Shown here in pieces: positions 1 through 6,000 of a stretch of 64,000 nucleotides of DNA (the first letter of the stretch is position 1; every line of letters starts with the position of its first letter). The position numbers were made by a program. The DNA is from Pseudomonadota bacterium (lineage in GTDB: Bacteria > Desulfobacterota > Desulfobulbia > Desulfobulbales > SURF-16): positions 14,839 through 78,838 of the forward strand of contig JAHJKA010000071.1 in assembly GCA_018822545.1 (NCBI GenBank), given 5' to 3'.

Positions 1-3000
1 ACCAGGGTAAAGCTCCTGGACTTGATCGGTATCATTCTAGTTGGTGGCGGTCTCTGTGGGGTGCTCGGTCATCTTACCATCCGGATTGTAACCATCCCCT
101 TGCGCCGCAAAAAAGACAACTAAACTTAAAGATAAGAGGAGGTTTTGTGATGAGCGAAAAACTTATATATATCCACCCGGCACCGGTGCGAATCTGGCAC
201 TGGATCCATGCCGCAGGCATTGTGGCGCTGGTATTGACGGGCTTTCAAATCCGCTATGCCGAGATGCTGGGCATCATGCCCTTGCCAGATGCTATTACCC
301 TGCATAATTATGTAGGGTTTGTCGTGATAGCCGATTATTTCTTGTGGCTGAGTTATTATCTGGGAACAGGGAAGATTAAGATCTATTTTCCTGATCTGCG
401 CACCTTTGTGCCTGATGCGATCAGGCAGGCCAAGTATTACGGTTTTGGTATTTTTAAGGGTGAGCCAAATCCCCATGTGATGACTCCGGACAACAAATTT
501 AATGCTATGCAGCAAAAAGCCTATTTGGGGTTGATGTTCATGTTGCTTCCCGCCCAAATGATCTCGGGAGTCTTCTTGTGGCGGGTAAAGGGGTATGCCG
601 ATTATGTAAACCTCCTGGGCGGCATCAAGATCATTGATACCATCCATGTCATTCTCTTTTTCTTCTTTGCCTCATTCCTCATTGCCCATTGCTATTTGGC
701 CACATTGGGCCATACACCCTTTGCCCATTTCAAGGCCATGTTCACCGGCTATGAGGAGCATCATTAAAAAAGTAATAAAAGTAAAAAAATGTATAAAAAA
801 AAGAGGCGTTGACCAATCTTGGTCAACGCCTCTTTTTTTGATGAGCACTCAGTACCGCACAAAAACACATAGGGAGTGCACGGGGTCGGTTAGCCTTTTT
901 TACCCACGGGAAAATCAATCTGATATTTCTTCATCTTGCGCCATAGGGTGGTTTTTTCGATGCCGAGATGGCTGGCTGTCTTGCCTCTGTTGCCGTCAAA
1001 TTTCTGGAGGGTGGCCAAGATAATGCCGGCTTCGGCGTTGGAGAGAGGCGTGGCTGTTTCACCGGCCATGATTTTTAAGGGCTCCTCCTGCAGAGCTGCG
1101 GTGAGACCATCGGGCAGGCAGTCCACATCAATGATGCCGCCATGGCAGAGGACAAAGCAGTATTCGATGATGTTTTCAAGTTCCCTGATATTGCCTGGGA
1201 AATCATGGCGCATAAGAATGCTGACTACTTCCGGAGAGGCAGACTGGACATTTTTTTGCTTTAAGTTGTTGAATTTTTGAATAAAATGATCAACCAGTAG
1301 GGGGATGTCCTCCCTTCTTTCCGCCAAGGGGGGAAGATTAATCTTGACCACATTGAGCCTGAAGAAGAGATCTTCGCGAAAAATGCCCTCATTGGCAAGT
1401 TGGTGGAGGTTTTTGTTGGTGGCGGCGAGTACCCGGACATCGGCCTTGACGGTGGTATTTGAACCCAGGGGTTCGTATTCTTTTTCCTGGAGGACACGCA
1501 AGAGTTTGAGTTGCAGAGCCGGGGAAATGTCGCCAATCTCATCAAGAAAAATGGTGCCCTTTTCAGCCAAGGCAAAGCGACCTATTTTGTCGGTCTTTGC
1601 GCCGGTAAAAGCCCCTTTCTTATAGCCAAAAAGCTCTGACTCCAGGAGGGTGTCGGGCAGGGCTGCGCAGTTTAAGGCCACATACTTGCCCGCTCTCTCG
1701 GACAGGGTATGGATGGCCTTGGCAAAAAGCTCCTTGCCTGAACCGCTGGGGCCCTCAATAAGTACGGTGCTGTCGCTTTTGGCGATATTAGGCAGGATGG
1801 CAAAGATATTCTTAATCCTGTGATTCTTACTGATAATGTCCTGGAAGCTATATTTGTCGGTAATTTCCTTACGTAGAGACTCAAGGGCCGAGCAGTCACG
1901 AAAAGTCTCGACCCCGCCTAGAGCAATACCATCCTCGTCACGCAGAGCAGAGGTGGTGACATTAATGGGAATCTGCCGACCGTTCTTATTGATAATGGTG
2001 ACTTTGAGGTTGGAAGTCTCGTCGCCGCTGTCCATGGATTGTTTGAGAGCGCAGGATTCTTTGCAGATATTGGCCTTGAAGATGTCATAGCATTTCTTGC
2101 CGATGGCCTCTTTTCTCTTGAAGCCGGTGATATGCTCGGCGGCCAAGTTAAAGGAGGTGATGTACCAGTCTTTATCCACCGTAAAGGCACCGTCGCCGAT
2201 GGAGTTGAGAATACAGTCGCTTAAGGACAGCTCCTTGCGTAGGCTATCAATGGTGGAGGTGTCACGAAATGTTTCCACACCGCCGATAATCTCCCCCTGA
2301 TCATTACGCAGCACACAGGTGTTCACCCGGATGGGGACCTTGTCTCCTTCGACATCCTCGATGGTAACCTTGATGTCATGGCCATCCAGGCTTGTGTCCA
2401 TGGATTTTTTCAGGGCGCAGGAGGATTTGCAGATATCGGCCTTGAAAACCTCATAGCATTTCTTGCCAATGGCCTTGGATCTGTGGACGCCGGTGATGTC
2501 TTCAGCTGATTTGTTAAAGGAGGTGATGTTCCAATCCTTATCGACGGAAAAGGCGCCGTCGGCAATGGAGTCAAGGATACTGTCGCTGAGTGAAATATCA
2601 CGCCGGAGTTTTTCAAGGGTCGAGATGTCGCGGAAGGTTTCCACGCCGCCGATCACCTCGAATTTTTCGTTACGCAGGACTGAAGTCGTAACCATAATGG
2701 GAATAGGGTCGCCCTCAGCATCATGAATGGTGACCTTGAGGTTGGTAACATCACGGCCGGTTTCAATGGATTGCTTTAAGGCGCAAGCGGACGTGCAGAT
2801 ATCGGCCTTGAATACCTCGTAGCATTTTTTGCCGACGGCGTCACTGCGGTGGATGCCGGTTATCTCTTCCGCTGCTTTGTTAAAAGAGGTGATGAGCCAG
2901 TCATGGTCCACGGAAAAGGCACCATCGGCGATGGACTCAAGGATACTGGCGCTTAGATTGTTGTGGCATTGTTGAGCCGAGATTTCTGCTGTTTCGTGGA

Positions 3001-6000
3001 AGGTTTCCACGCCGCCGACAAAGTCTCCCTCACTATTAAAGAGCGCTGTGGAATAAGCGATTACAGGAAGCTCTAAGCCCAGGCCATTTTTCAGGGCGAT
3101 ATTGTGGCTGACAATTTTTTCGCCAAGACGCATGGCTTGCTTGAGAGCACAGGAAGATTGGCAGATATTGGTCTGAAAGATGTCATAGCATTTTTTCCCC
3201 ACCACATCCCAGCGTTTGTAACCGGTAATGCTTTCTGCCGCCCGGTTAAAGGAGGTGATGTTAAACCCTTTATCCACGGTAAAGGCGGGATCAGTAATAG
3301 AATTAAGAGAGGTGATGTTGAAAGTGGTCTCGGTCTTCTGGGGAATTGTATGATCCATAGGGGAGTTACCGGCAGAGAGTTGAGGGAGAAGCTGCTGTGC
3401 TCTTTAAGTAAAGACTGGTTGGCTGGACAGGCCAATGAAAACATGGCACCCGCAGCATCATTTATTTGCATTTTTGCAATAAAGATACTGCAAGGAATTG
3501 CATGAGCGCAAGTTTATGGAGCCGTGATCATTTGCATTAATGGATAAATATATGAAATTAAAGGACATAATAATTCAACACAAAGGGTGGCGCGTAATGT
3601 GCAGTGATGAGAGGTGTCTCAATCTTAAAAACAGGAGATTACTGGGTTTGCGTTGTAGGTAAACATGTTTGTCCAGGAGGTAAGGCTTATGAAAATAGTG
3701 ATTTCAAGTACAGGACCTAACATCAAGGCGGCGGTTGACCCTCTGTTCGGCAGGGCCGCTTATTTACTTGTCTATGATACGGACAAGAAAGAAGTGGTGG
3801 AAGTCATAGAAAATAGTGAAGGGCAGGATGCTGTCCAAGGCGCTGGTATCAGAGTGGCTGGCCTTCTGGCCCAAAAAGGATGCAAGGTCATCATAACAGG
3901 GAAGGTGGGTCCCAAGGCCATGGCGGTTGTGGAAAAGGCGGGTATGCAAGTGGTTTCCGATGCCGAGGGTACGGTGGAGGAGGTCCTTGATGCGTTTCGG
4001 GCCACCAACATGAAGCAGGCGCCGTTAGATCAAGGCTTGACTCAGGGCAGGGGGAAGACACCAGGTTGCCGGAGCAGAAACAGAGGGCAAGGGTTGGGTG
4101 GTGGAACTGGTATGGGGAAAGGGCATGGCCGCAGAGGTATGGGCCGAAGCCCTGGGAATTAAGGGGCGAAGAATATGCAGATAGCTGTTGCCAGTGGCAA
4201 GGGTGGCACGGGTAAGACCACGGTGTCCACCAGTCTGGCCTTGTGCGCCGGGAGCGCGGTACAGTTTCTTGACTGTGACGTGGAGGAGCCCAATGGTCAT
4301 ATCTTCCTCAAACCTGAGTTGACAGAGAGTATCAGGCACACGGTGACCATTCCTCGTATTTTGACCGATCACTGCACCTACTGCGGCAAGTGTCGGAATA
4401 TCTGCCGTTTTAACGCCATAACCATGTTTGGGCAGACCATTATATCCTTTACGGAACTCTGTCATTCCTGTCTCGGTTGTTTTCTGGTCTGCGAGGACAA
4501 TGCCATTGTTCGTGATAGTCGGGAAATCGGTGTTGTTGAAAGGGGGCAGGTTGGAGATATCGACTTTGTCCATGGCCGGATCAGGGTGGGTGAGCCCATG
4601 GCCGTTCCCTTGATCAAGGCAGTCAAAACAAAGGCCAGGAAGGAGAGCCTGGTCATCATTGACGCACCGCCCGGCACCTCGTGTCCTTTTGTGGAGTCGG
4701 TTTGTGATGCAGATTTTGTCCTCTTGGTCACCGAGCCGACCCCCTTTGGTCTCCATGATCTGAAGCTTACCGTGCAGGTGCTCAGAACTTTTGCCAAGCC
4801 GTGTGGGGTGCTTATTAACCGTGCTGATCTTGGCGATGAGCGGGTTGAAAGATGGTGCCAGGTGGAAAATATCCCGGTGATGATGAAGATCCCCTTTGAC
4901 CGCATTATTGCCGAAGGCTATGCCCGTGGCGAGACCTTGGTCGAAAGCCGACCTGCCCTGCGCAAACCGCTTGAAAATCTATTACAGGAGCTGGTGCAAT
5001 GAAAGAAATTGTCGTTTTAAGCGGCAAAGGCGGAACCGGCAAAACCACTCTGCTTGGCTCCCTGGCCTGTCTTGCTGAAAACAAAGTGCTGGTTGATTGC
5101 GATGTGGATGCGGCGGATCTTCATCTACTTCTTACCCCTGAACATCGCTCTGAAAATGAGTTCCGGTCCGGGGTCAAGGCCCGGGTGGTTGCCGACAAAT
5201 GTATAGGATGCGGGACGTGTCAGGAGCTCTGCCAGTTTGAGGCCATCGAAGTAGCTCAATGTGCTACAGTTGACACCATGGCCTGTGAGGGTTGTGGTGT
5301 CTGTGCCTATTTTTGTCCGGAACAGGCCATCCATCTCGACAAAAATCATTGCGGCACCTGGTATATCTCTGATACCAAGTATGGCCCCCTGGTCCATGCT
5401 CAGCTCTTTGCCGGCGAGGAAAACTCCGGGAAACTGGTGTCCTTTGTCAAAAGACAGGCGCGTCAGGTGGCCGAAGAAATCGGGGCCGAGCTGCTATTAG
5501 TGGATGGCGCGCCGGGCATCGGTTGTCCGGTGATAGCCTCGCTCTCCGGGACAGATATCATCGTGGCGGTGACCGAACCGACGCTGTCCGGCTGGCATGA
5601 TCTGGAACGGGTCCTGGATCTGGCCGATCATTTTCAGGTGGCGGCCTTTGTGTGTCTCAACAAGTGGGATCTTAACCCCCAGATGGCCGATGCACTTGCC
5701 AATCATTGCCGGAAAAGGGATGTGGAGATTTTAGGACGAATTCCCTTTGATCCGGCCGTGGTCACCGCGCAGCTAAAGGGGCAGCCTGTGGTGCTTAGTG
5801 ACTCGCTGGCTACTTCTGCAATTAAAGACATCTGGTCTGCATTGCAGGAGAAGGTAAATGATAATTGCTTGTCGCTTGCAGTTCCCAAGGTCACTTTTCC
5901 AGGTGTTTTATCGCGCAACGAAATGCGGGCTGGCTAAGGGGGTTTTCCTGCTCGACAAAAGAAAAAGGCGGTGGAGAATGTATCTCCACCGCCTTTTTTA

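Follow-up and report, generated by a model that had tools for sequence, protein, structure and literature searches.

The orp (orange-protein complex) cluster of Desulfovibrio vulgaris and its regulator OrpR have reportedly been under study since 2011. Here, we analyzed 64,000 nucleotides of contig JAHJKA010000071.1 (assembly GCA_018822545.1, a genome placed in the Desulfobulbales), referred to below as the window, in which a sigma-54 activator gene stands divergently to a three-gene operon (positions 890-5937). Taken together, the evidence makes it highly probable that the locus represents the orp system in a variant form, governed by a redox switch of the OrpR type.

In D. vulgaris, DVU2106 (OrpR) is a sigma-54 activator encoded between two orp operons, absolutely needed for their transcription and active at low redox potential only; the two orp operons were its only targets in chromatin immunoprecipitation sequencing (ChIP-seq) (PMC8359166). 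The purified protein carries a redox-sensitive [4Fe-4S] cluster, which its authors placed in the PAS domain by mutagenesis and whole-protein spectroscopy, and sensing needs this domain and the conserved residues C52, C61 and C65, close to which D/E54 is conserved as well (PMC8359166). Deletion of the PAS domain or a triple Cys-to-Ser change leads to constitutive expression. The distribution of OrpR has been published as delta-proteobacterial (PMC8359166). Besides OrpR, transcription of orp is under the control of sigma-54 and of IHF (PMC8359166, PMC3897727), the latter being required at the orp promoters (PMC3897727), and the OrpR binding site, GGGCGYRTTTTGCGCCC, is located upstream of the sigma-54 promoters. 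Among the products, Orp3, Orp4 and Orp8 co-purify as a complex to which MrpORP hands Fe-S clusters (PMC6345978), and the hypothesis published for the cellular role that Orp proteins play is cell division.

A sequence-only reading of the window had described the activator and the operon as a module without assigned function. However, weak NCBIfam matches to “MrpORP” pointed to the D. vulgaris orp cluster, for which the Orp3-Orp4-Orp8 complex, MrpORP, OrpR, sigma-54 and IHF have all been described, and the earlier framing was dropped because the orp system has been known for so long. The recurrent pairing of NifX-like and COG1149 genes, which that reading took to lack an assigned function, is therefore accounted for by the orp system. 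What sets this locus apart as new is its set of four Fe-S-type PAS domains, together with a different operator, a minimal operon, a Gly/Arg/Cys (G/R/C) tail on the ORP-like protein and a probable extra cytochrome target.

The window locus and the Desulfovibrio orp cluster

The activator gene (890-3358, minus strand) encodes an 822-aa bacterial enhancer-binding protein in which Pfam recognizes four PAS domains, Sigma54_activat, AAA_lid_14 (PF25601) and HTH_8. It is transcribed divergently from the operon (3689-5937, plus strand), whose first gene (3689-4162) is preceded by an AGGAGG ribosome-binding site 7 nt before the ATG at 3689 and encodes a 157-aa ORP (Orp8)-like protein of the NifX fold (Nitro_FeMo-Co, PF02579, E = 1.3e-23). 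The second and third genes encode the CbiA/MinD-type ATPase 1 (4175-5002, plus strand; 275 aa) and ATPase 2 (4999-5937, plus strand; 312 aa), whose genes are translationally coupled by an ATGA start/stop overlap at 4999-5002. In both, the CbiA/ParA-type P-loop domain is interrupted by Fer4 according to Pfam, and both show the deviant Walker A motif GKGGTGKT and two inserted CxxCxxCxxxC motifs, while being 30% identical to each other. A bidirectional intrinsic terminator follows (5962-5998), a perfect hairpin with a 16-bp stem and A and T runs, which is common to the operon and the convergent tRNA-Leu(CAA) gene (6008-6094, minus strand). Sigma-54 itself, required in trans, is encoded in the same window by rpoN (21988-23451, plus strand), with all three Pfam domains (Sigma54_AID, Sigma54_CBD and Sigma54_DBD). 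The genes, the coupled ATPase frames, the terminator and rpoN seen in the sequence-only reading are thus confirmed, and the metallocluster-type products it had expected are found in the NifX-fold protein and the ATPases with their 2x[4Fe-4S] domains.

As reference we used the orp cluster of Desulfovibrio sp. X2 (locus L119), which was reached via the D. gigas ORP (74% identical to that of X2) and stands in for the D. vulgaris sequences. Its genes encode, in this order, an activator (449 aa), two small G/R/C-rich proteins, ORP, two ATPases and a NifX-like protein, and the succession ORP, ATPase, ATPase is the same in the window. The window NifX-like protein is 38% identical to the X2 ORP; its best match among solved structures is the D. 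gigas ORP (2wfb, E = 6.5e-17, residues 2-103), followed by MTH1175, and against the curated nifX model TIGR02663 it scored 21.6 bits, short of the cut-off of 112. ATPase 1 is 44% identical to the first X2 ATPase and 29% to the second; for ATPase 2 the values are 47% to the second and 29% to the first. By these identities, ATPases 1 and 2 are 1:1 orthologues of the X2 pair (Orp3/Orp4-type).

OrpR has a single N-terminal PAS domain, whereas the window activator carries four tandem units on the minus strand: unit 1 (2975-3316), unit 2 (2609-2950), unit 3 (2243-2584) and unit 4 (1877-2218). Each contains the motif C-x-[DE]-x6-C-x3-C, namely CYDIFQTNICQSSC (3149-3190), CYEVFKADICTSAC (2783-2824), CYEVFKADICKSSC (2417-2458) and CYDIFKANICKESC (2051-2092), and each motif matches the OrpR set C52/E54/C61/C65 (C52, C61 and C65 together with D/E54). 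The motifs start at aa 57, 179, 301 and 423, giving a period of 122 aa that is also visible in the DNA as a period of 366 nt. An assembly artefact as the source of the repeats was ruled out, as the DNA copies are only 64-86% identical and must therefore stem from an old duplication. The remainder of the protein consists of the sigma-54 interaction AAA+ domain (1340-1837, minus strand; PF00158, E = 4.7e-65), with Walker A (1730-1753), GAFTGA (1598-1615, aa 582-587) and Walker B (1538-1552), and a Fis-type HTH_8 DNA-binding domain (923-1042, minus strand; PF02954, E = 1.3e-11). Compared to the 449-aa activator of X2, which has a single PAS domain with CREVFHSSICDGSC and the motif GAFTDA, PAS units 2-4 are 46-47% identical, unit 1 is 33% identical and the AAA-HTH part 50%.

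All of the closest 23 homologues (at least 65% identity) have four C-x8-C-x3-C triads, with Asp/Glu missing from one unit in 3/23. The best 120 homologues of the PAS region are likewise all multi-Cys-PAS activators (2-4 motifs), and the few named organisms among them belong to Desulfobulbaceae, Desulfurivibrio, Thiovibrio and Desulfogranum. To our knowledge, no other Fe-S or redox-responsive sigma-54 activator or PAS sensor with four tandem Fe-S-type PAS domains has been described. The Cys-PAS region gave no match among solved structures. Its Cys motif is the one at which D. vulgaris OrpR is proposed to bind its redox-sensitive [4Fe-4S] cluster (PMC8359166), and a redox-sensing regulator, as first surmised, is likely.

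The promoter and its paired palindromes

The predicted sigma-54 promoter of the operon is the -24/-12 element TGGCGCGTAATGTGCA (3588-3603, plus strand), which differs from TGGCAC-N5-TTGCA at two positions and places the transcription start near 3613-3615. What had been seen as a cluster of TTGCA palindromes upstream of it is real, but resolves into two TTGC-N6-GCAA sites, the predicted upstream activator sequences (UAS) UAS1 (TTGCATTTTTGCAA, 3466-3479, centre near -140) and UAS2 (TTGCATGAGCGCAA, 3498-3511, centre near -108, 32 bp after UAS1). The 76 bp between the end of UAS2 and the -24 element (3512-3587) are 70% A+T and may serve as a DNA-bending/IHF region.

We aligned this intergenic region with those of four relatives (L003, L114, L082 and L113) whose activators are 76-89% identical. 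Mean column identity was about 45%, and the invariant blocks were UAS1, UAS2, a small A/T (TAA/AT) block and the -24/-12 element, the promoter being kept as TGGC(G/A/C)C-N5-ATGC(A/C) at 67-77 bp from UAS2. The claimed -24/-12 element thus stands by its conservation in relatives, whereas the bare consensus match does not exceed chance. In the window clade the module is a rigid composite of two TTGC-N6-GCAA sites spaced 32-33 bp, a stretch of about 76 bp and TGGCxC-N5-xTGCx. A composite scan of 117 sources (1.53 Mb) asked for a pair of palindromes spaced 31-34 bp, tolerating one mismatch at most, and for TGGC-N8-TG[CT] after a further 60-105 bp. This module was found 31 times in 23/117 sources and not once in five shuffles, and it also occurs beside single-PAS activators in metagenome-assembled genomes (MAGs) labelled Planctomycetaceae, Ignavibacteria, Zixibacteria, Hydrogenedentota and others. 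Across loci, the gap between UAS2 and the promoter falls into classes of about 60-67, 75-79, 87-89 and 97-99 bp, lying near 65, 76, 88 and 98 bp. The steps of about 11 bp approximate a single turn of the helix, which would be in line with an activator that has to face the polymerase, and suggest that the two are helically phased across many phyla.

It could be argued that the -24/-12 match and the palindromes are fortuitous and that transcription of the operon starts at another promoter and does not depend on the activator: two-mismatch sigma-54 matches are expected many times in 64 kb, and TTGC-N6-GCAA about 2.3 times per window, where UAS1 and UAS2 are its only two occurrences. However, a single stretch of 46 bp in one intergenic region contains both palindromes, diverged relatives show all three elements unchanged, the composite module recurs in a fixed geometry (31 times in 1.5 Mb versus 0 in shuffles), and upstream of the operon no sigma-70-like promoter was found in its orientation. 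We therefore regard a chance juxtaposition as extremely improbable. Regarding other signals, a simple scan revealed no sigma-70 promoter that would serve the activator gene and overlap the UAS in the way known from D. vulgaris, and no riboswitch or known RNA was detected in the 5′ untranslated region of the operon, the tRNA alone having reached its threshold.

Linkage to orp genes and to a cytochrome operon

A profile of the Cys-PAS unit matched more than 600 stretches in species-representative genomes. Of these, the best 80 loci were kept, and 41 were considered well flanked (at least 6 kb on both sides). In 77/80 loci the match is held by a sigma-54 activator, mostly of about 450-480 aa with a single PAS domain. 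Among the well-flanked loci, 17/41 contain both ATPase-1-type and ATPase-2-type genes, and an iterated search found at least one NifX-superfamily gene in 32/41 and a DUF5320 gene in 18/41. The fuller clusters combine two or three NifX-like genes, DUF5320, Mrp and the ATPase pair; for the Mrp proteins of clusters in other phyla, the best NCBIfam match was MrpORP at 352-411 bits, below its cut-off of 450. The loci carry the labels (unverified MAG labels) Thermodesulfobacteriota, Nitrospirota, Fibrobacterota, Ignavibacteria, Zixibacteria, Hydrogenedentota, Eisenbacteria and Leptospirales. Going by these labels, Cys-PAS activator loci are spread wider than the delta-proteobacteria. Roughly one fifth of the well-flanked loci have no orp-type gene nearby, and the family therefore also controls other targets. 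In the loci L008, L011, L019, L030, L039, L050 and L064 (Planctomycetota and other MAGs), no orp-type gene was found within 9-10 kb.

The co-occurrence of activator and operon that had been proposed is thus kept family-wide, as given by the ATPase and NifX-superfamily counts above, but is loose in the closest multi-PAS clade. The closest multi-PAS relatives have three or four PAS units, and one of their loci, L082, was the single useful result of a metagenome scan for close relatives. The orp genes are divergent from and adjacent to the regulator gene in the window, L113, L082 and L004, located 5-6 kb away in L003 and L114, and not within 7-9 kb in L002, L115 and L116. In L003 and L114, genes for flavodoxin and NADPH-dependent FMN reductase lie between the activator and the orp-like genes (L003 5407-6096; L114 1285-1767 and 2631-3230; all on the minus strand), and in L114 a sigma-54 module is located directly upstream of the flavodoxin gene.

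On its other side, the activator gene meets a cytochrome operon. The window starts with the last 40 codons of a cytochrome c gene (1-120, plus strand), the remainder of which lies left of the window, followed by the last gene of this probably co-regulated operon, which encodes a cytochrome b561-type membrane subunit (147-767, plus strand; PF01292, E = 4e-24). The latter is convergent with the activator gene, and a bidirectional intrinsic terminator with a 20-bp stem between A and T runs marks the convergence (796-839). As a proxy for the DNA left of the window we used L113 (89% identical), positions 9562-12685. The product of window positions 1-120 matches a 367-aa cytochrome with 7 CXXCH motifs from this locus (phmmer E = 1.3e-18; 93% identity by tblastn over the last 15 aa), and the cytochrome b is 98.5% identical to its L113 homologue. 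The operon encodes a small membrane protein, a small protein, the 7-haem cytochrome c and cytochrome b561, in this order, and runs convergently with the regulator gene.

The multi-PAS activator gene has this cytochrome operon as its neighbour in the window and in 6/6 multi-PAS relative loci that reach that side, and a full UAS-pair/sigma-54 module is located upstream of it in five relatives (L113, L002, L003, L004 and L116). One of the four modules that L113 carries within 8 kb lies directly upstream of the cytochrome c gene, while in the other relatives the nearest copy precedes the small membrane-protein genes heading the block. Because the module also precedes the cytochrome operon in relatives, the regulator is probably not dedicated to the orp-like operon, and the relatives' promoters suggest that the four-PAS activator probably co-regulates the cytochrome operon as well. 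Overall, it seems that the multi-PAS relatives of OrpR act as redox switches of electron-transfer complexes in the membrane and that the Orp ATPases are one of their targets.

These findings bear on the proposal that the module is self-contained, with an activator dedicated to one operon whose products mature a metallocofactor or deliver it to an unknown client enzyme. The divergent layout and the single UAS pair in the window would fit, and NifX-fold and MinD/Mrp-class proteins are established actors in cluster trafficking. Furthermore, MrpORP moves Fe-S clusters to Orp3-Orp4-Orp8 (PMC6345978), and orp is the sole target of D. vulgaris OrpR (PMC8359166). However, in the relatives as many as three further transcription units next to the regulator (three in the case of L113) have the same module in front of them, with identical copies before the cytochrome operon and the small-protein genes in five relatives. 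The cytochrome operon is moreover the more constant neighbour, the orp genes being absent from the vicinity of the regulator in three close relatives, and no Orp protein is known to have a client or a maturation activity. The self-contained part of the earlier claim is therefore given up, and we consider this reading as a whole possible but doubtful.

Further proteins with Cys-PAS units were noted around these loci. Desulfogranum mediterraneum (L117) and L118 (genes 8001-10418 and upstream) encode sister activators (about 800 aa) in which three Cys-PAS units are combined with one PAS that has no Cys triad. They are divergent from operons for Fer4_11 (ferredoxin), cytochrome c7 and NrfD; MerR genes are nearby and no orp genes are near. 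In addition, a protein of 232-244 aa with one Cys-triad PAS (FCYEVFQSSLCEENC) and HTH_8 but no AAA+ domain is encoded in L113 (12928-13632), L002 (14796-15491) and L003 (15116-15847), always on the minus strand. As it is encoded inside the relatives' regulon, it could act as an anti-activator competing for the same palindromes; a homologue would lie left of the window in the source genome.

Several observations weigh against the identification as an orp variant with an OrpR-type switch. Within the window, no MrpORP-type Mrp/NBP35 homologue is present anywhere in the 64 kb and, unlike in the fuller clusters, neither DUF5320 nor a second NifX-like ORF was found. The close relatives L002, L115 and L116 have no orp ATPase within 7-9 kb of the regulator. 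The D. vulgaris site GGGCGYRTTTTGCGCCC is not the window UAS, as the Desulfovibrio core is GCA-N3-TGC and that of the window GCA-N4-TGC (the X2 site, GACGCATTTTGCGTC, is D. vulgaris-like). For IHF, the spacer 3512-3587 contains only two-mismatch matches to WATCARNNNNTTR, none of them convincing. Sigma-54 consensus matches with at most two mismatches are not enriched in the window (18 observed, 26 expected), and the bare -24/-12 match was for this reason not counted as evidence. In the regulator, a role of the four PAS domains as Fe-S sensors is predicted from homology to OrpR. Since the D. vulgaris protein has a single PAS domain and the motif GAFTDA and controls only the two orp operons, the window activator has to be seen as a diverged paralogue or variant whose targets may differ.

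Possible roles of the Orp-like proteins and known systems

The ORP-like protein ends in a G/R/C tail of 49 aa (4013-4159, plus strand) with a pI of 12, 16 Gly (33%), 10 Arg/Lys, one Cys, three Pro and no aromatic residue. A Pfam search of this tail gave no match, DUF5320 included, and G/R/C-rich tails are also kept in relatives. Upstream of ORP, the X2 cluster (L119 9059-9900) encodes a weakly NifX-like protein with a G/R/C-rich tail and a separate G/R/C-rich protein of 112 aa; both resemble the tail of the window protein and neither matches Pfam DUF5320. The NifX/ORP-like gene is absent from L113 (6676-7001; relative 89% identical), the start of ATPase 1 being 325 bp away from the activator gene there, and in L082 (3015-3701) it is interrupted by an in-frame premature stop (Q to stop). 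Despite this loss or interruption, both loci keep the ATPase pair and the promoter module. Based on these two loci, the gene is predicted to be dispensable in the multi-PAS clade.

Tails of this kind raise the possibility of Fe-S storage or buffering as in IssA, with the NifX-fold protein nucleating thioferrate-like polymers under sulfidic, reducing conditions and the ATPases loading or mobilising the store. IssA consists of an IPR003731 domain and a cationic Gly-rich tail that holds its sole Cys, and an uncharacterised mesophilic “IssX” clade with cationic Gly-rich tails has been noted (PMC5524996). The ORP-like protein indeed combines a PF02579/IPR003731 domain with a C-terminal tail that is cationic, Gly-rich and carries one Cys, as kept in relatives, and expression at low potential only would fit a storage function. 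Unlike that of IssA, however, this tail is not aromatic-rich and has no Pro-rich segment (PMC5524996), the best structural relative of the domain is ORP and not an IssA-clade protein, and L113 and L082, both of which retain the ATPases, have lost the gene by deletion and by interruption, respectively. We thus judge IssA-type storage to be quite improbable. SipB (PF2026) was tried as a COG1149 link to IssA and set aside, as the papers contain no domain information on it.

In both ATPase families, GKGGTGKT, a DCDV switch I, all eight ferredoxin Cys and a D-x-PPG-x-x-C-P motif are kept. This includes two extra invariant Cys, located in DCDV (4271-4282 in ATPase 1; 5095-5106 in ATPase 2) and in D-x-PPG-x-x-C-P (4661-4687 and 5503-5529). 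The Cys of the latter motif is placed seven residues after the Walker B Asp, which we take to be the spacing of Asp125-Cys132 in NifH. By analogy, the two extra Cys together could form an inter-subunit metal site like that of NifH, and the spacing suggests, speculatively, a nucleotide-switch-coupled metal site and ATP-driven electron or cluster transfer. No solved structure of the ferredoxin-insert ATPase subfamily was found, only separate matches to MinD proteins and ferredoxins. Elsewhere in the window, a 292-aa ORF (42955-43833) is weakly similar to the ferredoxin insert (E = 3.6e-11 against ATPase 2), but probably encodes an Fe-S protein of unrelated kind.

Among solved structures, MinD proteins are the closest to the ATPases (E = 7.8e-12), and a pair of ATPases acting at the membrane or the poles might influence where the septum is placed, a role proposed for the ORP complex of D. 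vulgaris. Altered morphology when OrpR is inactivated and a polar localisation of MrpORP have been reported in this context (PMC8359166, PMC6345978), but the published link to division is indirect. In the curated models, both ATPases stay below every MinD, ParA and Mrp cut-off, and far below those for MinD (63.5 and 55 bits versus 201.75 for minD_arch; 33.8 and 48.9 bits versus 212.9 for minD_bact). Each carries eight ferredoxin-type and two further invariant Cys, and we know of no such Cys requirement for MinD-type positioning. No Min- or division-like gene was seen among those examined (window 1-8,000 in detail, the rest from the ORF list). MinD-like positioning therefore appears quite improbable for the window proteins, and co-regulation of the ORP ATPases with a cytochrome operon points toward electron transfer rather than cell division.

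For the orp variant proposed here, the following mechanism can be envisaged. As deduced from OrpR, the activator would stay bound to the two palindromes, and with intact [4Fe-4S]2+ clusters its AAA+ ring would activate the sigma-54 polymerase. When the potential rises, the clusters would be oxidised or decay, the PAS domains would inhibit the AAA+ domain and transcription would stop. Going by the relatives, the same regulator would drive the operon for the small membrane protein, multihaem cytochrome c and cytochrome b via identical modules, and the orp-like operon would be one arm of a small low-potential regulon. Among the least certain steps, the ORP-like protein and an ATPase heterodimer probably form an Orp3-Orp4-Orp8-like complex. 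Such a complex might speculatively use ATP to bind, reduce or hand over a metal-sulfide cluster. Also among these steps, four sensors per chain could sharpen or widen the response compared to one.

A more far-reaching version, which we hold to be unlikely, is that the activator is a four-PAS “redox rheostat”, a distinct OrpR paralogue in which each monomer would hold as many as four [4Fe-4S] clusters (24 in the hexamer) and whose low-potential regulon would couple a cytochrome c/b complex to Orp3/Orp4-type ATPases. It would act via the rigid, helically phased UAS-pair/sigma-54 module common to Cys-PAS activators of many phyla, and the ATPases would be NifH-like electron donors to the metal-sulfide cluster of the ORP/IssX-like protein, a role suggested by the Cys placed like the switch-II cluster ligand of NifH and by the ferredoxin inserts on the same face. 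If true, this would give the long-enigmatic ORP complex a concrete biochemical role.

Independently of this, the locus offers a natural experiment on signal integration, as the Fe-S PAS sensor of OrpR has been multiplied two- to four-fold in what is, by organism labels (Desulfobulbaceae, Desulfurivibrio, Thiovibrio), a Desulfobulbales-type lineage. It also provides a testable operator/promoter grammar (paired TTGC-N6-GCAA, phased spacer and -24/-12) common to Cys-PAS activators in MAGs labelled Nitrospirota, Fibrobacterota, Ignavibacteria, Zixibacteria, Hydrogenedentota, Eisenbacteria and Leptospirales. The minimal set of an ORP-like protein and an ATPase pair, reduced in one relative to the two ATPases, helps to narrow down which parts of ORP complexes are essential, and the lineage represents a reduced system for attacking Orp protein function.

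Comparing the locus to known systems, the closest is the orp cluster (DVU2103-DVU2109) and OrpR of D. vulgaris Hildenborough. In both, a Cys-triad PAS sigma-54 activator adjoins sigma-54-dependent operons for a NifX-fold protein of the orange-protein type and a paralogous pair of MinD-type ATPases bearing 2x[4Fe-4S], preceded by palindromic UAS about 90-140 bp upstream. The window differs in having four PAS domains and GAFTGA instead of one PAS domain and GAFTDA, paired TTGC-N6-GCAA sites instead of GGGCGYRTTTTGCGCCC, one three-gene operon instead of two divergent operons, and a G/R/C-rich tail on the ORP-like protein; equivalents of MrpORP (Orp9), Orp5 and Orp7 are missing. Its regulon probably reaches the cytochrome operon, while ChIP-seq targets in D. 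vulgaris were restricted to orp.

At the level of single proteins, the D. gigas (Megalodesulfovibrio) ORP (2wfb) shares the NifX/MTH1175 fold with the window protein, but has about 117-120 aa, no tail and a non-covalent Mo-Cu sulfide cluster, whereas the window protein is extended by its 49 cationic residues. The thioferrate-storing IssA (PF2025) from Pyrococcus furiosus has the same succession of an IPR003731 domain and a disordered, cationic, Gly-rich, Cys-bearing tail. Its tail, however, spans 70 aa compared to 49 aa without aromatic or Pro-rich parts in the window, and IssA is archaeal and sulfur-induced, while the window operon is predicted to be sigma-54 controlled. The ATPases share the signature-lysine P-loop GKGGxGK[ST] and a DxD-type switch I with the MinD/Mrp-NBP35/NifH class and the DxPPG Walker B with its Mrp/NBP35 branch, but differ from this class by the 2x[4Fe-4S] ferredoxin domain inserted after switch I. 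Finally, in NifA/NifL, NorR, NreB and AdhR, as in the window activator, an N-terminal sensory module negatively gates a sigma-54 AAA+ domain and a metal centre senses redox or O2, but these systems use sensor folds or ligands that differ from the four Cys-triad PAS units described here.

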